From assembly GCA_051294905.1 (NCBI GenBank), contig CM119371.1:32490001-32554000 (forward strand): DNA of 64,000 nt, written 5' to 3'. Each line of letters starts with the position of its first letter. Positions within the stretch are counted from its first letter, which is position 1. Below are positions 1-23,684 of this stretch, piece after piece. This DNA is from Botryllus schlosseri (taxonomy: Eukaryota). Position numbers and translations under genes: made by a program. The notes under the pieces are model-generated. The model was not told where the DNA came from. It saw only the letters and a program-made list of their open reading frames with translations, and did not search any database.

Positions 1-3000
1 TGGACGGATGCTTATGCTATCGAAAATTGGATACCTGCTGGTATGCATCAATATGAATCAAGCTCGTCACCTTTCGCATAGATCAATTTGCACCTTTTTA
101 CAATCCATGTGAACAAATTAGGATCGTTTTCACAACTACTTACTTACTTGAGTACTTTTAAAGTCCGTCAATTCTACTTCTACTTCAAGTAGTTTCAGGG
201 TTCTTATGGAAGAAGTACTTCTACTTGTACTTGAGTAGATTTTTTTGTCGCTACTTTGACCACCTCTGCTTGTGCCAAATCTAACTGTAGGATAGTAATA
301 AAAAGCCGCAAAAGACTTATATCATAAATAATATTATACATTATGTAGAAAATGCATCGTTTTTTATTATTTTAAATGGAAATTTGCAGGTGCATTTATT
401 GAAATAAGTGGTAGTGTCTTGAAAACCCGAGCTTTTGATTTGATATGAACAAGTGCTAAAATCCAATTCCACAATGATAGGTGGTGGCGAATGTAATCAA
501 TAATCCTTAATGCATCCGTTCACACCAGGCACCTAAATTGGAAAAAAGATTTTCTACTGAACGTCCAGCCTACCGATTTCCATCTAGCAGCTCATCATGA
601 AGTTATTCTTGAATAGGGGTTATGTATATTGCCAAAGAAAATCGATAACAAATGTCCACTTATAGCGACTACTCACTAATTTGCTGGGACTGACAATTAG
701 TAAACATTTCGAAGTCACCCTGATTGACCTTAGTGTTCCACCTTTTTATCTTTTCACAAACCCCGACATACCATCTTCAATAGCAATATATGTTAGTATC
801 ATTAGGCTGCTGTCAATTTATCAATTAAAATGAGTTTGCACAGTAGGATGATTCGTTTTCGACGGCCATTTTTGTAATATTGAGTCTTTAAGTTTTATCA
901 GTTATGAAGCGAATCTGTCTCGTGATTTACCTAATTGAAAAAATACAAATTAGGCGATAAAACATTTTACAAATTTGGATGTCTCGCGGGCTCCCTGAAA
1001 ATACTTCGTGGACACCGGGTTGAGAGCCACTACTCTCGTGACTCGTGAGTCTAGTCCAGGGATCGGGAACCTTTTTTGACCGGAAAGCCATATTGGCGCA
1101 ATATTTACAATCGCAAATCCGAAAGAGCCATACATATAATTCAACTGTTACGTCACAAATGAAAGTTCGTAACGTATCGGTAGCACTAATGCAGTGGTTC
1201 TCAACATGTGTTCCACGGCACGCTAGCGTGACAATTAGGTCTCGCGATGGTGCCGCGAGAAATCAAAATTGCTGTCATGGCCGCAATCAATAAACTCCGC
1301 GAATTCGCTTTACCCGACATACCGCGCACCTTGAAGGTTGAATTTAGTTGTGCAAAATACGTTGATTCATCGCAAAGAAGAGCTGATATGGCGGAGCCTG
1401 TGTAACTATGCACTTTTACAATCCTCATCGTCTTCCTAAGTAGCAGCGAGACATGAACTTAGTTGGAAGTGAGGTTCACTGGGGGTGTTCAAAAAAAAAC
1501 TTATTTTTTAAACTTTTTTCGGCTTGGTTGTCAAATCGTCAGGTTATTTAAAGAAACGTTGCACACCAAATTTGAATCAATTCCAACCAGCAGTCATTTA
1601 AATTGAAATTTCGGCCCTTTTTGAAATAATAGTATTTACGGTGACCTATTTCGTCACACCGACATGACGAAAAATCGTGTTCATGGTATGCCTGAAGAGA
1701 CGGGTATGTGCTTTCCGCTTGTTTTGATCTTGACAAGGGCCCATGGTGGCGTCTGGACGAAGACATCGCCAGTAAACGAAAAAATGGTATAACATGGATT
1801 ATCTGGAAACTAGTCCACTTCACTACGTCCTTGCATTTTGCTGCCTGTCTGAAATACAGATTGAGTGGTCATTGATTTTGAACCGATAAATGAATATACA
1901 GTTGACTATACACGCAAGAAGGCGCTGTATCGTCCACATATACGAAGAACTGCTAGACTACGTGAGTAATTGCATGGCCTCAGCTTATAGTTACCAGCCA
2001 AAATAGAGAATAGAGAAGCGAATTGATAAGATGCAATACAGTACCCATTTACAAATTGATATGATACGATTCTAGCCTGCGTAAATGGTTGGGGACTATA
2101 TAAACCAGGGGTGGGCAATTATTTTCCTTCGCGGGCCAAATGAGAACTATAAAATACCTTGGCGGGCCGAGTGAAATTGTTTACGAATATTCTCCAGCTT
2201 ATATTAATTTTGTTTCTAAACACCATTGTTAATAAATGCTGCTCAGTGAATGTGTTGATGTTAGGTAATGAGAAAGTGCCGGCTAATTGAAAAAATATTA
2301 ATTTGCCGTCGTGATTCGAAACAGTGTTAAACATGATACATTTTTAACTCTCTATAGTGATAATTTCACGCCCAAGCCCCCCTATTATGATATCACAACA
2401 TAATAAAAAGAGCAACCAGCATACTAGCAATCCCGACGGATAGTTTAATGGCATGGATGGTTGTGAATGTTGATGAGAAGTTTCTGTAATATCAAAGTCG
2501 GACAATACTCAGAGCAAAAATGTAGGGGTTAAATCGCGCGGAGCGCGAAAAAAAAATTACTTCAGCTTCACGCCTACGAGATTTATTTACGCCCCCAGTT
2601 CGAGAAACACTGCACTGAAATGCATCTGGGATAGTACAGTGGTTCCCAACCTTTTTCATCTCGTGCCTCCCTTGGCCGAAATTTGAGCCAAAATACACCC
2701 TTAGGAGAAATCTGCCCGATGATTAAAAAAGGTCATTTTTAACCGCGCAATCACCTGTTGACCGAAGCATAAGACGGGCGGCACAGAGTGTTTGTTTCTA
2801 GCAGTGCTGTAACAACACTTTGTAGACCTCCAAAAACAATGGTCTTGGTCCCAATCAAACAAATTCTGGAAGGCTTGAATCAACAGACCTCATATTTCCA
2901 TTTGTACTTTCGGCTTATCATGCACTAATCGTTTATATAACCGCTGTGAAAAATCATTATGCATAAATTTACTGGTCTCGCGATTTTTTTCTTAAGTTTG

Positions 3001-3041
3001 CGAATGCATTTGGCCAATGATATTGGTACTTTCATATACAG

Positions 3042-3795
3042 CAGGATTGAAAACACTCGAGTCGAACTCGAGTCAGCATTTTCTGATGTCTCGACTTAAC
3101 TCGACTCATATCCTCAAAATAGGGAAACGACTCGACTCGACTAGAGACAATCTGTGTATTGACTCGACTTGGAGTCATTGTACATGACTCGAACCAAGTC
3201 ATATTACTCGTTACTATAAGACGGTCAAGACCGACATTTCATTGTAATTTCGAAGAACAGTAAAGTGGCCTTCCTATCCTATTGGAATTTCGTCTATTGG
3301 TCCTGGTACTTGAAAATGCGACGGTAAACTGCTCAAATTGAAGAAAATTAGTATATTATGAATCAAAATCATTCAATATTACCAAACAGAGTTATAGAAA
3401 GTGAGTCTAACAGGACTTCAACTGGAAATTGAGCAGTCAACACAATGACTTGGACTCGGACTTGAGTCATTATACCATGAATCTGACTTGACCCTATGCT
3501 CGGTGACTTAGACCGTCGGACTTGACTCAATAGTGAATTGAAAATGACTCGACTTGATTTTCCTCCTCGCCACCTCATCCGCGTAAGCGGTGTCTTACCA
3601 AAAGTGGAAGTGGGTCGTGCTATAAGTCGGCAGTTACGGAATAAATGTGAGGAGTGTCGGTCTGGTGTGAATGGCCATAGTGGTCGAAATACACAATGAA
3701 TACCACAAACAAACAAACTCGACTTGATTCGAGTAAAAACTATTAAAGTGAGATTGACTTTTGACTTGGAGCCTCGTGACTTGGTTACAGCCCTG
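3042..3795. mobile_element. GACTCGA-rich hAT MITE (CAGGGTTGTAA family)
   Basis: Has subterminal GACTCGA arrays and right end GTTACAGCCCTG. Homologous to 23127-23684 and 63565-64000. Confidence 0.75.
3560..3716 (+). mobile_element. 5'-truncated SINE with (CAAA)n tail
   Basis: Matches the 3' part of the full SINE at 25616-25891. 13-bp TSD ACTCGACTTGATT (3547-3559 / 3717-3729). Confidence 0.88.
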
Positions 3796-5239
3796 ATATA
3801 TACCCTGATATATAACATACACGTAATCAGATTTCCTGCTTGAGCTCATTGAAATTTAGGACATTCATTCTGTTTCGGCCACATTGCACCAAGTTTAACA
3901 TGCATTTTTTCGATCGAGTTGCTGTTCACTAAAAATAAAGGCAGGCTAGCTAGCGATCTCTTTGACTTGAATTGATGGCGTTGGAATATTTTGTCACTTT
4001 ATGAAAATGTTGACTTGAAAATATAAGATAAATACTTTCGATAGAGGCCTTGTTGTGATAGATTCTGCAGGACATTTGCTCGCTTAGAATATATTTGATT
4101 GAGAGGCCGTCTCTGGCCTACAAAATTGTTTTGCGAACTGCAGCACATCTGAACTAGTTAAAAAAAAAACAAGGAACTTGTATGTGAGAAAGAGATTTCA
4201 AATAGCATTTGAACATACTTTCAGCAAAGAAAACAGCTATAAGAAGCTATACGTTCTGATATAACTGGTTGACTACATGACAGTTCGGACATGAACAATT
4301 TGGGAAATCCGTTACAATTCTAAAGTGAAATTCCTCCCTAAAAATTGCAAAATTCCCCCCAAGGGGGGAATTCCTCCCCGGTTGGGAAACACTGGGATAG
4401 TACAATGTTTGTCTTGGTTGCTGCATTCCGACCAGTTTGCAGTGCAGCTCAAAGACCCTTGATGTTAAGCGAAGTTTGTAGTTTTTCTGAAGTTCGACCT
4501 GCCTTGACCGAGTGTTTCGTGTTTTTGTCATAATAAAATCCATATTCTCGGCACTATACTCGGCAAAAACTAAAAAGGGCGGGTTTATCCCTATCTCCAG
4601 TATACAAATATTTAGTGCTCTTCTAAACCTTCTGTGAGTTTCGGCTTTTGGCTTTCTCTTTTTGACATGTTCGTTCATCCTTTATAGGTGATAGATATGA
4701 TGAGTCATAGCAGTAGCGAGCACCGAATGACTTGTTTTTCGAATTAGGGATTTGAAAACGCCTCAAGTAACAATTTGAATCACGTACCGTATAATGCGCA
4801 ATATGACAATGGCAACAAAGAAGGTTCGACTCAAGCTTTATGAAAATAGTGATTTCTTGTGAATTCGATTGATACTCATGCTTTGCCACATTGCATTTAT
4901 TTTGAATCTTAATACGCATGCGAGGTACGTATATACTATATAGGCAGGGTAATCGTGGCGTATTAATGATCATACTTCAAAATAAACGAATTTCCTGTTT
5001 AGTTCATACATCCTATAGCTTTAGTCCACGCATAAACATTCAAAATGCAGGTTTATTGTTGCGGATTTTGAGCAACCTTTCGCGGGCCGCATTTGGCCCG
5101 CGGGCCGCACTTTGCCCAGGCCTGATATAAACTATATTCGAATAGAATTTAAATAAAACAAGAGGTTTGGTTAACGTACGAACAGAGAACAGAAATATAC
5201 ATTTTGCTCTTAAATTACTTTGCTATATTAGTTTACGAC

Positions 5240-5626
5240 TACGGCTGGGCACAACGATTCGAGTACTCGAATCTGAATCGAATATTTTTTTTAATGATTC
5301 GAGTCGAGTACTAAGACGCGATATTTTAGAGTAGTGAAAATATACGCTCTACGCCAGTGAAAGTTAATTTATCAACGACGATTATAGTTTCGATACTAGT
5401 TCCCACTTCGGATGGCTGCAAACCTTGATTGGCCATATGGCAGCATACGAAACATAGTACAAAGTTAGTAACTTGATTGGAATTAACATATTTCTGAAGA
5501 CATGAATAACCCACAACCCGCCACAAAGTGCAATGAAATCGATCCGGTCGAGAACATACCAAATAATCTCGAATACTCGACTTGACGCAGAATACATGAA
5601 TTCAGAATCGAATCACTCAGGCCCTA
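5240..5626. mobile_element. hAT-type MITE
   Basis: Ends are TACGGCTGGGC and CAGGCCCTA, with a perfect TSD TTTACGAC (5232-5239 / 5627-5634). A single TTTACGAC is present at the homologous empty site near 49004. Confidence 0.85.
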
Positions 5627-6600: not shown

Positions 6601-7233
6601 TGAAGGATTTTGTTTTGCAAACAAAGCGCAGATAATGCGCAACAAGGTTGAAAAAGCACAGTACTGAACTTATCGCGACTATAACTTTTCGATTGCGAAT
6701 CTAAGCCGAGCTACTGTCGTGAACGATGCATGTTGTATCGTACACTACACAAAATACTGGTTGTCTTAGACAAAAAATAGATGAGCAAACTAAATATTGC
6801 CAAGTTTCATTATAAGTACTTTTGCGAACACACCGCACGAAATCATTATACATTTCATAAAGCATGACGTCATAGACATTTTTAATTGTGAAATCTTGTA
6901 TGATATCGAGTGGTCATTTAAAGGCGAAAGGGTGTGATCTTCTTCTGTGCAGTAGCATTATCCTCAACGTGACACCTCACATTGGATGGCTTTACCGCCT
7001 AGGGATTAGGCTCAGGTATTTCATCATGAAACCGATCCGCAGAGCAGAAAGGGTTATCGGTAGTGTTGGTGTGAACCTCGCGTTCTGTGTGTGAACCTCA
7101 CAAATTTAGAGGTTCACGTTCACAAACTAACCTTGGCAGGTTCTGCTCTGTGAACCTTTTTCATATATTACAATTTTCACTTCAATATAACATCTTTAGT
7201 TGAAATTTATTGAATTTCAACTGTGAGCTACTA

Positions 7234-8609
7234 GGGGAGACCGGGGACAATTGTAACACTTTTCGTATTTTCCAACATTACGTGTTTTTCTCGTGGAAAT
7301 TTCACTTCCAAAGTTTTATATAAAGAAGCCAACAACTCGATAGTTGATATGAAAACTAAATTGGAACTCAATCAACAATCAATCATGGAAATTTTGGGTC
7401 GCAAAAATCGCTACTCAAATGTTACAATCGCCCCGTACCCAGGGGCAATTGTACCACCCTTGCGGGGCAATTGTAACAGTGTTATTTATAACTAAACAGA
7501 ATCTAAATGAACAACGAAAACGGAAGCACAATATGTAATATTGCGTGAATCTAAAGGAAGAGACGTTTGAACGCTTCCAGGCTACGCCCCATCGCATTTA
7601 TGGCATCTGAATGCAATATCACCCTTCGTGTCTTGTTCAAGCTTAAAGTGTACAAGAGACACATTCATTCCATCATCTCCCTACACATATTCGGCCTCTT
7701 CTACCAAGGTTCTGTTGTTCAGTGGGCATAATGGGTTGGTCATTCGGTCACCTGCGAAGGTGCGAAACCGACCTGGCTCACATATCTTGGTTGAATGGGC
7801 CGATGATATTATAGTAAAACGAGGACGCAACATTGTGTGGCGTCAAAGCTATAATGACATTTATCTGTGCTGTAGAAAATTAACATAAATTGTTCACATC
7901 AAATATCAAAATGTAAGTGGGCCATGATCATAGTCAGAGGACGAGAATTAAGCCATGAATATTGAAGTTCGACACACCAAAAGTCGATCAACATGAGAAA
8001 GGGTGGTTGAATCACGAACATAACCGAACCGTCAGATTCACATCACCACTATTGTATGGCCGTTTCGCCAGATGATCATGTTAGAATTGGTATCGCAAGG
8101 CAGTATCTGCTCTGTTGAACTTCTGGCTGTTGCAAGATTATTCTGCAGTAGATAAATGGTATTACCAACATATGAACAAAGACATTCAGAATTGATAACA
8201 TATTGTAACGGGGCAAAAGTAACAGAGTGTTACGATTGCCCCTGACACGCTCGACCATGATTAGCGTCTCAGTATGGTACCTTCCCGGCGATGCAAGTCC
8301 TATTATTTCCATCACCACGGTAGACTATAGTAACATTGTTCCAGCTACACATATTACGTTGTAACTACTTGAGGTACTATTCGTCTAGACAAATTATTCC
8401 AGACCAGAAAAACTTTACTCAAGGGTCAAAAATTTAGTTTTTTACAAATTATTCCGGGGTTTCGCATCGTAGCTCAACGTAACTCCAGGTATAATAGGAG
8501 AGATAACTACTGCATGCGCACTTAAAATATCAAGCTGATTTCTCCATCCTACTAGCGGTGAGGTCGATTGTTACATTTGCCCCTAGTTACATTTGTCCCC
8601 GGTCTCCAC
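7234..8609. mobile_element. Tc1/mariner/pogo-type non-autonomous element, copy 1
   Basis: TIR is GGGGAGACCGGGGACAA, preceded by TA, with right end TTGTCCCCGGTCTCCAC. Nearly identical to 18963-20623. Confidence 0.9.
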
Positions 8610-10239
8610 TTCAAAATCAACAATAAACGAGCATGCACCTTGGAAATTTCAAAAATTTCACATGCTTTGTTACAAAAGTTTGCTCGTAATATCCAGCTTT
8701 TCGTTTGTGAATATTAAGTGAATTTCTGGTGTGAGCGTGACCGGCAATCACACAACCTCAAGAGCGAAAATGCACCACTTGCACGTAGCCACAAACACCA
8801 AATCCCTGCGATTGGGGTGTTGGCCACTGTTGTATAACTTGTTAATGGAGTAATGTCGGTAGCAAAACCCGTTTTACACTTTGATCAATATCAACGTAGC
8901 AATACTCAGACGCCGATTACATTGTCCGGTCTGGCTTACAACGTTAAGGCGTAAGCTTGAATTACCTTGCAAGTCCCCGTCGAAATTGTTTGCAAAGCGA
9001 CGGAAGATATTGACTTCATGGGTTTATTATATCATTTGATTGCCCCAGTTGATACATTTGGCGACGTTCAAAACGTCAATATGTACTTCAGCATTGTGAC
9101 ATGATGTGGTCCGAGTGGTCGCTAGGTAGCCTATCGTGTAGGCCTACATCTACAATAATATAGGCTATCACTTCACTGAAATGTAGGGTTAAAATTAGCA
9201 AAATTACGTCACGTAACGACATAAGGTTGACGTTCGCGTTCACACAGAACCTTTCAGAGGTTCACACCATCCCAAGTTGTCGGTCCCTGTTCTAATTTAT
9301 AGTCTATTTTGTTGCGTGCTATGAGTCCTTCAACGGTTTAAATGTTCAAATTCTTTTTCTATTCACAAACTCTTCGACTTACCAATGACTTTACACATTG
9401 CAACATTGAGCATGAGCAATAATATGCACGTCCACGCGCAGGAAGTTTGCTATGACTAGAGTTGGTCATAAACGAAATACTACTTTTCAAACTACTTTGA
9501 CAACCTCAGGCTATGACTTAAATCAGGACTTCAGTAGGTGCATTGGGATGCCGTGGACTCATTCTTCACTCAGCTTCTTGCCTCTATGCACAAACACAGT
9601 GCAAATGATACAACACGATTCTTCAAGTTGGATTGTATTCGAACATGTTTTCCTCAAATATTAAATCGACGATATCGTACACCATAACAACAAATATCCG
9701 TAAGAGCAGTAGCCTGACACAATAGCTCGTCCAAAAAGGTATAGTTTTCCAACGTAGATTGCAAGCGACGCATTCTTTAACTTTTATTCGAATCCACCAA
9801 AATTTCCAAAGGGTCAATTAGTCGGATTAATATACTTGAGAAATGTCATCCACAATGTCCTGATTTCAAAAACTACAGCTATCAATACAAAACCAGGTGA
9901 TAGAGCACATACTAATGAAAAAACTTTTGTCCGCAGTTTCTCACTCACGAAACAACAACTGCTGGATAAACATTGTTAGGCGTTCAAACGCAGAAGCTGA
10001 ATTCCAAATACACAGATATCATAGGAGGCGTCACAACTATAACTGTCACTTGGAGAAGTATTAAGCACAGCTTGCTACCAGATACCTACGACAATTGTAC
10101 ACGTGAATACACAATGCATGCAACCATACGGCAATGAATTTACGTCAGGAAATATTCGAGAACAAAATCGACTCATTGTTCAGAAATGAAAAAAAACCGT
10201 ACGATTTCCAAATACTTGAAAGTAATGTAGGTTAATGAG

Positions 10240-18121: not shown

Positions 18122-19711
18122 GACTTGACCCTCAAGCAATGTAAAAATAGTATTTCAACAAATACGAATCCAGGCTGCACCGTAAATTAAATTCGACTAG
18201 ATTTCATAGTCAAAATGCTGGTAGGCTATATGATCCTTTCCAATGTAGAATATACTGCAGATCGAGCTATGTGGAAAGCTGGGTGAGCCTGACTAATGCT
18301 GACTATGAGCTTCTCATAATACTCACGGTCATATAGCCTACCGATATTGTCGCTAATACCGTTAACATGCATGGCGAGCTTTTTCATCGATTTTGCAAGT
18401 CCCGCGACGATGCCTGAAACAGACTGAAGCCGGATGTAATTTAATGCTAAACCCGCACGCACGAATCACGTGAACGCGCTGCGCGTATACTATACAGCTG
18501 TGAAAATGCTGATGCATTAATGGCCAGTTCACTGAACAATGAATGCTCTTAATAGTGATATACGTGTGGCGATCAACCATTTTCGAAGTATTCTTTTTAT
18601 ATTGTGCTGTGCCTACGGTTGCAACTTACTTTTATTCCTAAGTATTTGAACAGAGAATCATATTAAAATCATAAATGTACTTTAGACTTTGTCCTGATTG
18701 CCTTTAAATTAATATTGCAAACAGTATATATATATAAATACATTAGCATAAACATTAAATATCGCGCCGTGTTCACTTGACATATTAAACCACATGATAC
18801 AACATGCACTCATTGGTTGCTAATTCTGCTGTTCTAAAATTACAATCAGTTATCATATAGCGTTTCAGATTCGTACTTTGCCGTACATTAAGCAATGATT
18901 GGAGATATTGGGCTACCAACATTGTCCACACAAAAGGGAATCAGTAGATACAATCTTATGTAGGGGAGACCGGGGACAATTGTAACACTTTTCGTATTTT
19001 CCAACATTACGTGTTTTTCTCGTGGAAATTTCACTTCCAAAGTTTTTTATAAAGAAGCCAACAACTCGATAGTTGATATGAAAACTAAATTGGAACTCAA
19101 TCAACAATAAATCATAAAAATTTTGGGTCGCAAAACTCGTTGCTCAAATGTTACAATCGCCCCGTATCCAGGGGCAATTGTACCACCCTTGCGGGGCAAT
19201 TGTAACAGTGTTATTTATAACTAAACACAAACTAAATGAACAACGAAAACGGAAGCACAAATTGTAATATTGCATGGAACTAAAGGAAGAGACGTTTGAA
19301 CGCTTCTAGGCTAAGCCCCATCGCATTTATGGCATCTGAATGCAATATCACCCTTCGTGTCTTGTTCAAGCTTAAAGTGTACAAGAGACTCATTCATTCC
19401 ATCATCTCCCTACACATATTCGACCTCTTTTACCAAGGTTCTGTTGTTCAGCGGGCATAATGGGTTGGTCATTCGGTCACCTGCGAAGGTGCGAAACCGA
19501 CCTGGCTAACATATCTTGGTTGAATGGGCCGATGATAGTATAGTAAAACGAGGACGCAACATTGTGTGGCGTCAAAGCTATAATGACATTTATCTGTGCT
19601 GTAGAAAATTAACATAAATTGTTCACATCAAATATCAAAATGTAAGTGGGCCATGATCAAAGTCAGAGGACGAGAATTAAGCCATGACTATTGAAGTTCG
19701 ACACACCAAAA

Positions 19712-19952
19712 TGTTATGTTCGTGCATTTACGTTTTAGTGTCGTACAACTCTTTCTTTCTATAGGATTAGTAATTACAGCCAATCATTCTTTCCTCGTGT
19801 GTCGTGCTTGTATTTATACCCTGTGTTCTGTTGTCTCCTCGTCTTTCATTTAACTGAACTCTGGATCGTGTTACTCTGCTGTTAATATACTGATTTCTTA
19901 TTGCAACCTCGTCGTATTGAGTTATTGATCAAACAAGATCAAGAACATAACA
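19712..19952 (+). mobile_element. Single LTR of an LTR retrotransposon (probably Gypsy-type)
   Basis: 241 bp with TG...CA termini and a 10-bp inverted repeat TGTTATGTTC / GAACATAACA. Contains a TATA-like TATTTATA. Followed after 2 nt by a tRNA-Leu primer-binding sequence. Absent from MITE copy 1. Confidence 0.85.
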
Positions 19953-19954
19953 AT

Positions 19955-19996
19955 TGGTGTCAGAAGTAGGATTCGAACCCACGCCTCCATTCGGAG
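19955..19996 (-). other. 42-nt copy of the 3' end of mature tRNA-Leu (CCA, acceptor 3' strand, T arm, long variable arm); extended PBS
   Basis: The reverse complement CTCCGAATGGAGGCGTGGGTTCGAATCCTACTTCTGACACCA resembles the 3' half of animal tRNA-Leu(CAA) plus CCA. No D arm or anticodon arm is present, so it is not a tRNA gene. Confidence 0.88.
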
Positions 19997-20749
19997 GTCG
20001 ATCAATATGAGAAAGGGTGGTTGAATCACGAAAATAACCGACCCGTCAGATTCACATCACCACTATTGTATGGCCGTTTCGACAGATGATCATGTTAGAA
20101 TTGGTATCGCAAGGCAGTATCTGTTCTGGTGAACTTCTGGCTGTTGCAAGATTATTCTGCTGTAGATGAATGGTAATACCAACATATGAACAAAGACATT
20201 CAGAATTGATAACATATTGTAACGGGGCAAAAGTAACAGAGTGTTACGATTGCCCCTGACACGCTCGACCATGATTAGTGTCTCAGTATGGTACCTTCCC
20301 GGCGATGCAAGTCCTATTCTTTCCATCACCACGGTAGACTATAGTAACATTGTTCCAGCTACACATATTACGTTGTAACTACTTGAGGTACTATTCGTCT
20401 AGACAAATTATTCCAGACCAGAAAAACTTTACTCAAGGGTCAAAAATTTCGTTTTTTGCAAATTATTCCGGGGTTACGCATCGTAGCTCAACGTAACTCC
20501 AGATATAATAGGAGAGATAACTACTGCATGCACACTTGAAATATCAAGCTGATTTCTCCATCCTACTAGCGGTGAGGTCGATTGTTACATTTGCCCCTAG
20601 TTACATTTGTCCCCGGTCTCCCCTAAATGATAATTGAGCCGACAATACCCTGATCTCCATCATAACAGTTTCAAAGCAATATTTATAGAATGTACAATGT
20701 ACACCATGGATAGAACTGTCTCAATGATTTTATATCATCGCATGTCATA

Positions 20750-23126: not shown

Positions 23127-23684
23127 CAGGGTTGTAATGACTCGAGTCAGACTCGAGTCACGATTTTCTGATGACTCGACTTGACTCGAGTCCTTTTCTA
23201 AAAATACGGAAATCACTTGACTCGATTCGAGTCAATCTGTGTATTGACTCGACTTGGACTCGAGTCATTGCGCATGACTCGAACCAAGTCATATGACTTG
23301 AGACCAAGACGGCCAAGACCGATATTTCATTGTGATTTCGAAGAATAGTAAAGAAACCACCCTATCGGGTCGGGACTTCGACTATTGGTACTGGTACTTA
23401 AAAAGGCGACCAGAAACTGATAAAAGTGAGGAAAATTAGTATATTACAAACGCGAACCAGTCGATATCACCAAACAGAGTTATAAAAGTGGGCTTAACAA
23501 GACTTTAACTGGAAACTAAGCAGTCAACACGATGACTTGGACTCGGACTCGAGTCACAATACCATGAGTCGGACTCGAATACCGGGTCGATGACTTGGAC
23601 TCGGTGGTGAATTGAAAATGACTCGACTTGACTCGTGTCAAAACTATAAAAGTGAGATTAACTAGTGACTCGGTTACAACCCTG
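23127..23684. mobile_element. GACTCGA-rich hAT MITE
   Basis: TIR CAGGGTTGTAA / TTACAACCCTG with TSD CTTGTTTC / CTAGTTTC (7/8). Absent from the paralog near 54340. Confidence 0.9.

Follow-up and report, generated by a model that had tools for sequence, protein, structure and literature searches.

A 285-bp insert in the genome of Botryllus schlosseri is very probably the fossil of a read-through plus-strand strong-stop DNA, an intermediate of reverse transcription that was extended into its own primer tRNA. The insert lies in a stretch of 64,000 nt (assembly GCA_051294905.1, contig CM119371.1, positions 32,490,001–32,554,000 of the forward strand), which is referred to as the window. It is composed of a single long terminal repeat (LTR) of a Ty3/gypsy retrotransposon, the dinucleotide AT, and a copy of the last 42 nt of tRNA-Leu(CAA). 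The best overall explanation, held with moderate confidence, is that reverse transcription was aborted and that the bare piece of LTR and tRNA was joined to its target by the host. Errors of this kind are already known from HIV-1 proviruses, and the capture of complementary DNA (cDNA) is known from yeast; here the event recurs in about 50 fossils.

A fossil intermediate had been proposed in an earlier note on this DNA. That proposal is supported by the structure of the insert, by the mature-tRNA origin of its last 42 nt, by the recurrence of the same architecture, and by a diagnostic base in the sister copies.

The Insert and Its Host Repeat

The insert interrupts one of two copies of a repeat in the window (Table 1). 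The two copies were found to be collinear apart from one 285-bp block by direct reading, pairwise alignment, and BLAST. The BLAST alignment pairs 7232–7982 with 18961–19711 at 96.7% identity and 7983–8610 with 19997–20624 at 97.1% identity. The empty site reads CACCAAAA|GTCGATCAA, and identical bases flank the block in the filled copy. The target-site duplication (TSD) measures 0 bp, 0 nt of the target were gained or lost, and no microhomology (0 nt) was detected on either side of the insert by alignment or BLAST. Junctions that lack an integrase-type TSD and are blunt or altered by 0–5 nt are those expected of capture at a break, and the insert agrees with this. The earlier description of the block as the sole difference between the two copies, with no TSD and no deletion, was confirmed.

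Table 1. Positions of the insert, its parts, and the host repeats in the window
Feature	Positions	Strand	Remark
Insert: LTR, AT, and 42-nt copy of primer tRNA	19712..19996	+	sole block that differs between filled and empty repeat
LTR, 241 bp, Ty3/gypsy	19712..19952	+	matches both LTRs of the element at locus L076
AT spacer between U5 and primer-binding site	19953..19954	+	common to normal and read-through copies
tRNA copy, first 18 nt, complement of tRNA positions 76–59	19955..19972	+	normal extent of strong-stop DNA
Read-through of 24 nt, complementary to A58 through the first variable-arm hairpin base	19973..19996	+	identical to the gene sequence
Filled host repeat, non-autonomous DNA transposon with terminal inverted repeats and TA duplication	18961..20624	+	
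Empty host repeat, 1,379 bp	7232..8610	+	empty site between 7982 and 7983

The genome of the same organism was searched using 201 bp centered on the empty site, and 40 of the 406 candidates were scored. All 40 scored matches (the query and 39 other copies) are unbroken over the insertion site, and the empty state is therefore ancestral. This result refutes the alternative that the empty copy arose from a filled one by deletion.

The host repeat has terminal inverted repeats (TIRs) of approximately 25 bp (GGGGAGACCGGGGACAA...), a TA duplication, and a longest open reading frame of 105 amino acids. It had been called a miniature inverted-repeat transposable element (MITE). The TIRs, the TA duplication, the noncoding character, and the high copy number agree with that name; the size of 1,379 bp exceeds that of a typical MITE, which by convention is usually below about 800 bp. 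The repeat is better named a non-autonomous TIR element.

A chimeric join made inside the repeat during assembly would be helped by the high copy number of both flanks, and no public short-read contig bridged the filled junctions. In the public contigs the host repeat is seen solely in its empty form (join 19711>19997), together with other contexts of the LTR family; as short-read assemblies of high-copy repeats, these contigs are uninformative on this point. Against an artifact stand the private changes and the private deletion in the LTR, one private change in the tRNA copy, and an independent locus (L056, described below) that shares the architecture. Nor would a chimera be expected to end at the start of the LTR and at the modal tRNA stop with every base of the host repeat restored. 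The probability of an assembly artifact is judged to be next to negligible.

Origin of the 42-nt Segment

In the insert, the LTR (TGTTATGTT...AACATAACA) is followed by AT and then by TGGTGTCAGAAGTAGGATTCGAACCCACGCCTCCATTCGGAG at 19955–19996, after which the host repeat resumes directly. In reverse complement, the 42-mer corresponds to the 3' end of tRNA-Leu(CAA), and 41 of its 42 positions match genes of the same genome plus CCA. Its extent takes in the CCA, A73, the 3' strand of the acceptor stem, and the T arm, followed by two linker bases and the variable hairpin of 12 nt. The copy ends one nucleotide 3' of U44, and the next template base is the U that follows the anticodon stem. Both the composition given for the insert in the earlier note (a 241-bp TG...CA LTR, AT, and 42 nt of tRNA-Leu with its CCA) and the claim that reverse transcriptase (RT) had read 24 nt past position 59 to the base of the variable arm were upheld. 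The single mismatch, at copy position 14 (window position 19968), has no counterpart in any tRNA gene. A 31-nt piece of the tRNA copy occurs once in the window and in none of 100 shuffles.

About 19 tRNA-Leu(CAA) gene-like loci, which contain introns, were found in the genome. ARAGORN with its intron option calls the gene loci tRNA-Leu(caa). In default mode ARAGORN detects no tRNA in the window or at six of the tRNA-gene loci, since the genes carry introns, and an Rfam scan of 19850–20100 gave only a chance match (E 0.93). The listed gene trailers read CCT, CTA, CGT, AAG, AAA, AAT, TAA, CAT, CAC, and TCG, and none reads CCA; two listed rows that do read CCA are LTR-linked copies and not genes. 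The match to tRNA-Leu genes without an encoded CCA, which had been named in advance as a check, was therefore obtained. Because no listed tRNA-Leu gene trailer encodes CCA, the CCA of the insert is attributed to the copying of a mature tRNA. The segment is the 3' part of that mature tRNA and is longer than the 18 nt of a normal strong-stop product.

A tRNA gene, a tRNA pseudogene, and a tRNA-derived short interspersed element were considered and rejected for the 42-mer: it lacks a 5' half with an A box, consists of no more than the 3' 42 nt of the tRNA, includes the CCA, and directly abuts LTR–AT. No tRNA gene variant matching the GTAGG of the window and of junction L002, or a GAGT variable loop, was found in the genome. 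Six tRNA-Leu(CAA) genes whose introns differ in sequence are clustered within about 17 kb at G000:C4:19768794-19785608 (loci L067, L070, and L072), and ARAGORN misreads some of the clustered genes as tRNA-Arg(tcg) with an intron.

The LTR and Its Parent Family

The window LTR has TG...CA ends and a 9-bp terminal inverted repeat, and its first base is the base directly after the polypurine tract (PPT) in full elements. From a genome search with this LTR, 1,114 first-look candidates were obtained; 40 were scored, and 30 loci were fetched. At locus L076 (G000:C10:28517456-28524955) the window LTR matches at 501–781 and at 4992–5247, which delimit an element of 4.75 kb. The internal region holds one open reading frame of 1,400 amino acids with the domains RVT_1, RT_RNaseH, Integrase_H2C2, and rve. 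This order of RT, RNase H, and integrase between LTRs in direct repeat therefore assigns the parent family to the Ty3/gypsy (Metaviridae-type) retrotransposons. The termini agree with that assignment: TG...CA ends, a primer-binding site (PBS) 2 nt past the 5' LTR, and a PPT (...GGGGAGGAC|TGTTATG) that abuts the 3' LTR. The insert of the window begins at the first U3 base beside the PPT and contains U3-R-U5 plus the spacer, as is expected of plus-strand strong-stop DNA.

Normal members of the family have the form LTR-AT-TGGTGTCAGAAGTCGGATTCA, with a 20-nt PBS followed by the leader and gag, and 162 exact copies of this form are present in the genome. Among the 30 fetched loci, 15 have the normal form, 14 (the window included) have LTR-AT followed by 36–42 nt of tRNA, and one is a 3' LTR. 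The full-length members thus do not carry the 42-nt match, and the refuting case foreseen earlier, in which the insert would be just a truncated element, does not apply.

No other sequence of the LTR family was found elsewhere in the window by BLAST. The window LTR falls within the diversity of the family: in gap-free comparison with 40 other LTRs its median identity is 89% and its highest 95%, and the median among the others is 88%. The window LTR also has a private deletion of approximately 15 bp. A solo LTR likewise consists of a lone LTR of a family, but it arises by LTR–LTR recombination, keeps its TSD, and carries neither a PBS nor tRNA sequence; this assignment was ruled out for the insert by the missing TSD and by the AT and 42-nt tRNA copy after the LTR.

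Tandem arrays of the form LTR-internal-LTR-internal-LTR, with the PPT of one unit immediately before the LTR of the next, were observed at L010/L011/L042/L043 (G000:C7:14313846-14318083) and at L076. One tandem array is made of a read-through derivative, and its junction is to inverted internal sequence with 8 nt of microhomology.

Recurrence and Stop Points

The end of the LTR followed by AT and 31 nt of tRNA was used as a genome-wide search pattern with at most three mismatches. The pattern gave 51 matches, compared with 0 for the reversed control, and one more was obtained with a shorter pattern. The resulting 52 LTR–tRNA junctions contain 28–50 nt of tRNA with a mode of 42 nt, and the event in the window is therefore not singular. 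Of these junctions 48 are distinct; the pairs L042/43, L077/78, L049/87, and L055/L002 have both junction and flanks in common.

The tRNA lengths were tabulated for 50 junctions (nt:count; 28:2, 35:2, 36:1, 37:4, 38:2, 39:6, 40:8, 41:6, 42:9, 43:3, 44:1, 46:1, 47:1, 48:2, 49:1, 50:1), in addition to which L002 has 39 nt and L097 has 42 nt. The lone 47-nt junction is really one of 42 nt plus a chance match. Three or four products stop at 48–49 nt, just before G37. No junction with 19–27 nt of tRNA was found among the 52 that were read. Each of the 38 exact tRNA-type junctions is a read-through product of at least 28 nt, and these 38 represent approximately 15% of the 259 exact LTR–PBS junctions.

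Opposite A58, 49 of 50 junctions have T; L091, which does not, differs at positions 18–19. Relative to the gene, the tRNA copies contain 24 differences across 47 distinct junctions (approximately 1.3%), and the window copy contains one in 42 nt. Copy position 36 is changed from T to C in three distinct junctions plus L097 (L035, L060, L077/L078, and L097), and for L035 this change is accounted for by the target sequence. Copy position 32 is changed in three junctions (L050, L055, and L091). These two positions correspond to variable-arm adenosines, and no tRNA gene carries the variants. The recurrent changes, which are small in number, could be due to chance or could be the trace of a modified or edited A in the template.

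The stop points also bear on the nature of the template. One possibility is that a 3' tRNA fragment, cleaved beforehand, served as primer and that RT ran off its end; the clustering of end points at 39–43 nt (32 of 50) together with the few ends at 48–49 nt, the point at which a 3' half produced by cleavage in the anticodon loop would finish, would be in keeping with this idea. About seven or eight of the 50 junctions exceed 43 nt, however, so that at least some templates reached the anticodon loop, and the spread of 35–43 nt with use of microhomology suits pausing better than a fixed RNA end. The main end point is not known to be a site of tRNA cleavage. Priming by a fragment is considered unlikely.

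The block could in principle also have been copied at the DNA level during repair of a break, from one of the approximately 50 LTR–tRNA loci that the genome offers as templates, with no cDNA involved. Templated insertions at breaks are known (PMC11724301). The ends of the block, however, coincide with the natural ends of strong-stop DNA, with the LTR complete from its first base and the tRNA copy ending at the modal stop, whereas genomic templates continue on both sides; in addition, the closest LTR that was found is only 95% identical in a gap-free comparison. A patch of this kind is judged very unlikely.

The Diagnostic Base of the Primer-Binding Site

At position 14 the genomic PBS has C (GTCGG), whereas the tRNA genes have G (GTGGG). 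The two types were counted under equal criteria as exact 23-mers, and 221 C-type and 38 G-type junctions were obtained. Read-through is present in 0 of the 221 C-type junctions, and the normal leader follows none of the G-type junctions. Among the 52 read-through copies, position 14 is G in 50, A in two (the window and L002), and C in none.

In two loci both types of sequence occur in tandem. Locus L093 (G000:C1:24558665-24559281) reads LTR-AT-tRNA(28 nt, G-type)-AAT-PBS(C-type)-leader. Locus L054 (G000:C12:8666678-8669714) contains 44 nt of tRNA, 27 nt of other sequence, the last 11 nt of an LTR, AT, a C-type PBS, and the whole internal region. In both, the PBS was duplicated when the read-through strand landed again on the proper site or close to it. 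From the C/G split and these tandems it follows that the long tRNA segments were copied from the primer and were not inherited within a lineage.

The PBS copied from tRNA on the plus strand seems never to be inherited in normal copies of the family (221 to 0). Ty1 is said, following Lauermann and Boeke in 1994, not to inherit the sequence of its primer tRNA. Similarly, the PBS base of the present family mismatches every tRNA-Leu(CAA) gene, a likeness that concerns the Ty3/gypsy family and not the insert.

No tRNA gene with a T stem of the genomic type (GTCGG/CCGAC) was found, and the sole match was locus L074 (G000:C11:22482216-22485237). It is a tRNA-Leu-like 3' fragment that begins in the variable loop and has a GTCGG-type T stem matching the genomic PBS. 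The fragment has no CCA, no link to an LTR, and no ARAGORN call.

Junctions That Continue into Family DNA

Thirty-six of the 50 junctions run on into sequence of the same family. The continuation is mostly in forward orientation, at internal reference coordinates 912 to 4486, and is inverted in nine rows. At L033 (G000:C2:38163218-38166254) and L046 (G000:C9:24820331-24823367), both among the nine, LTR-AT-tRNA (37–38 nt) is directly followed by an inverted LTR that starts with ...ATTGTTATG, and at L033 an inverted PPT follows the head-to-head LTR. These two junctions are jumps onto the 3' end of another plus strand (...CAAT), and the unprocessed U5 end therefore carries a 2-nt AT. The AT corresponds to the bases that integrase would trim from the end of linear cDNA.

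Of 34 junctions, 14 show microhomology of at least 2 nt; overlaps of 4 nt or more occur in six rows (five distinct), with a maximum of 8 nt, and apparent filler or mismatch of 1–11 nt is seen in 14 rows. These figures are approximate, having been obtained with a single reference copy that is 83–99% like the true parents.

Derivatives with two LTRs (1.0–1.5 kb) have perfect 5-bp TSDs in five of five cases (GGTTG, ATACT, GTGGT, GAAAC, and GAAAA). Locus L058 (G000:C17:1349947-1352983) is composed of LTR, AT, 35 nt of tRNA, and the last 11 nt of an LTR, and is flanked by the TSD GTTAT; this product of approximately 300 bp was still inserted in the manner of integrase. All six integrase-type members thus have a 5-bp TSD, compared with 0 bp for the window insert. 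Read-through products of this family are integrated with 5-bp TSDs once they have regained a U5 end or reached an internal landing site.

Since three two-LTR derivatives carry the same 42-nt copy (L037, L038, and L060), the insert could be imagined as an integrated, deleted two-LTR element that later lost the part from the tRNA copy to the end of one TSD copy, with the target exactly restored. Such a deletion would have had to be exact to the base at both ends, and the end points that it requires show no microhomology. An equally precise outcome at the independent locus L056 and five orphan copies that have no family DNA within 7.5 kb downstream argue further against it. This history is regarded as extremely unlikely.

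Orphan Copies and the Mode of Joining

The remaining 14 of the 50 junctions, and also L097, continue into DNA without a BLAST match to the family and are referred to as orphans; the window insert and L058 are among the fourteen. Most of them were read with approximately 240 nt of downstream sequence, a length used for 20 junctions in all, and five were extended to about 7.5 kb. No family DNA was found within approximately 7.5 kb downstream in any of the five.

The target could be defined for three orphans: the window insert, L056, and L035. L056 has 42 nt of tRNA and sits within another repeat with neither a TSD nor a deletion; three of three paralogs are contiguous over its site at approximately 80% identity, which limits the resolution accordingly. 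L035 (G000:C3:37845977-37849013) is flanked by a direct repeat of 24 nt, CACTCGGGTTCATTTCAATATGAA, and the end of its tRNA copy overlaps the first bases of this repeat. For other orphans, the flank of L044 is single-copy, and the upstream repeat at L036 stops 7 nt before the LTR.

For the window insert, end joining by the host with no part played by integrase is the probable route. Integrase-type members have 5-bp TSDs in six of six cases, and the lack of one here argues that at least the tRNA end was joined by the host.

Several observations count against this interpretation or narrow its basis. The window insert, L056, and L035 all begin exactly with TG. Judging from the PPT context (GGGGAGG-AC-TG), plus strands may have their start at AC; if so, as the analogy with retroviruses and the 2-nt AT at the opposite end would also suggest, a captured molecule should keep the AC, and an exact TG would be the result of integrase. 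The orphans are not all blunt, for L035 has a duplication of 17–24 nt with microhomology at the tRNA end. The paralog of L049 is only 80% alike and ambiguous, and empty sites were defined for three of the orphans. At position 14 the window copy has A, neither the G of the tRNA nor the C of the genome, and the diagnostic base is uninformative for the insert itself.

Some of these points can be accommodated if the same read-through product was joined at its U3 end by the integrase of the element, in a one-ended reaction, and at its tRNA end by host repair. The exact TG in the three orphans would then be explained, as would the absence here of the two extra bases on unprocessed ends that GGGGAGG-AC-TG and the AT of the U5 end suggest. 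The mini product at L058, with its TSD GTTAT, was an integrase substrate, and the irregular duplication at L035 with its microhomology is what would be expected of a joining reaction finished by the host. Mutants of avian retroviruses reportedly undergo one-ended integration with duplications or deletions made by the host. On the other side, two of the three verified orphans (the window insert and L056) have neither a duplication nor a deletion, which is better fitted by a blunt break than by a nick with a host cut at some arbitrary distance opposite it. The genome-type C is moreover found in 0 of 52 read-through copies, which argues against pairing of the PBS region with a minus strand derived from the genome, the usual route to a double-stranded left LTR. 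A genome search for LTR–LTR circle junctions showing an unprocessed U3 end gave 0 matches. One-ended joining by integrase is possible, although we consider it doubtful. The earlier proposal that the product was patched into a break without integrase consequently stands in part: the missing TSD supports it, and the exact TG at the left end fits joining by integrase.

Proposed Mechanism

A pathway to the insert can be outlined as follows, in an order of enzymatic steps that we infer from the structures of the fossils. Plus-strand synthesis would begin at the PPT and proceed through U3-R-U5 and AT. The tRNA-Leu(CAA) primer would then be copied while it was still joined to the minus strand. RT would fail to halt after 18 nt, at position 58, and would run on through the T arm and the variable arm as far as the foot of the anticodon stem, where it would come to a stop one nucleotide short of U44. 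The read-through product would be incapable of the normal second jump. In most of the sister cases, the 3' end would have been re-primed on internal minus- or plus-strand DNA through microhomology of a few bases, and the resulting deleted or inverted elements would have been inserted by integrase with 5-bp duplications. For the window copy no re-priming would have occurred, and the piece of LTR and tRNA alone would have entered the chromosome. Its joining was most likely accomplished by host end joining at a blunt break, which would leave neither a duplication nor a loss.

Read-through of 1-methyladenosine (m1A) by RT usually leaves misincorporation. Because T stands opposite A58 in 49 of 50 junctions, the failure to stop at A58 probably resulted from a primer that lacked m1A58. 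The stop before U44 may be due to structure or to a 2'-O-methyl group on U44 (Um44). Such 2'-O-methyl groups pause RT one base early at low concentrations of deoxynucleoside triphosphates (dNTPs). Among eukaryotic tRNAs that have a long variable arm, Um44 is frequently present (PMC5372725).

Taken jointly, the approximately 50 fossils may be viewed, tentatively and as a possibility short of a probable one, as a natural primer-extension series on the primer tRNA in germline virus-like particles. Four propositions would be combined in this picture. Priming would frequently be by tRNA-Leu(CAA) without m1A58, as suggested by the faithful copying of A58 and the lack of stops at 19–27 nt. A back-up stop would lie one nucleotide before U44, as is expected for Um44 at low dNTP concentration, with a minor stop before G37 (1-methylguanosine, m1G37). 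The dead-end strong-stop DNAs would be rescued into the germline either by microhomology-primed transfer or, for the window insert and L056, by integrase-independent joining. The PBS strand copied from tRNA would never be inherited in normal replication (221 to 0).

Comparison with Known Systems

The closest known case is that of HIV-1. There, 44 defective proviruses are described with 7–54 nt of tRNA(Lys3) at the deletion junction, and they are ascribed to deferred second-strand transfer (PMC12657518). In HIV-1, as here, RT passes the 18-nt stop into the primer tRNA and lands downstream, which gives the order LTR, PBS, extra tRNA, and internal sequence. The inserts of 7–54 nt in HIV-1 correspond to 10–32 nt beyond the PBS here, and the HIV-1 architecture is shared by 36 of the 50 junctions, with normal TSDs in five of five two-LTR cases (PMC12657518). 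Unlike the HIV-1 examples, the present ones involve a Ty3/gypsy element and a tRNA-Leu(CAA) primer, are fixed in the germline, and make up approximately 15% of exact junctions. The 36 sister junctions have internal sequence downstream, whereas the window insert has neither internal sequence nor a second LTR and does not show the structure expected of deferred transfer. With its TSD also missing, the window copy differs from the HIV-1 proviruses in being the unrescued intermediate itself.

In yeast, Ty1 cDNA is captured at double-strand breaks by Ku-dependent end joining and without an integrase-type duplication, and the 3' LTR is a hot spot, with many inserts carrying bases that exist only in replication intermediates; this account is drawn from two papers in which the studies of Moore and Haber (1996), Teng et al. 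(1996), and Yu and Gabriel (1999) are summarized (PMC1976456, PMC11372161). The yeast captures described there were at induced breaks in laboratory strains and involved a Ty1/copia element, in contrast to the natural, fixed event in another class of element considered here. The captured piece in the window is a complete read-through strong-stop DNA, and the break at its site is inferred.

A study of retroviral RT reports that the enzyme runs on when m1A58 is missing, proposes a second stop further in, at m5Um54, and states that the read-through products are unable to integrate (PMC8599865). The fossils resemble this case in the faithful copying of A58 and in a stop at a second site. They differ in its position, which is before U44 of a tRNA with a long variable arm and not at m5Um54, with no stops at 19–27 nt. 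They also show that read-through products do on occasion become integrated. No description of a germline-fixed, orphan read-through strong-stop DNA was found in the literature, of which the older primary papers of 1985–1999 were largely beyond reach.

Significance

The size and cleanliness of the fossil series, together with a testable prediction about primer modification, add to the interest of the case. Textbooks and recent work on HIV regard read-through into the primer tRNA as a dead end that blocks integration (PMC8599865). In this genome the dead end leaks visibly into the germline, as the 38 of 259 exact LTR–PBS junctions attest. The fossils take three forms (deleted, inverted, and orphan), and the orphan in the window gives the cleanest picture of the intermediate. 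The spectrum of stops predicts that tRNA-Leu(CAA) is low in m1A58 and carries Um44, and past states of a primer may thereby be readable from genome sequence alone. If the proposal is true, the modification state of the primer would be a measurable determinant of the decay of the family into deleted, inverted, and orphan copies. In annotation, pieces of LTR and tRNA that lack a TSD ought to be kept apart from solo LTRs and from truncated elements.

Other Repeats in the Window

The tRNA copy of the orphan L032 is abutted by a TIR-type element with the terminus ...CAGGGATGGTGTGAGCG, and the sequence at 7079–7225, just to the left of the empty host repeat, is 85% like this element. Other repeats in the window include the pair 3042–3557 and 23127–23631, which with further copies are 79–85% alike.

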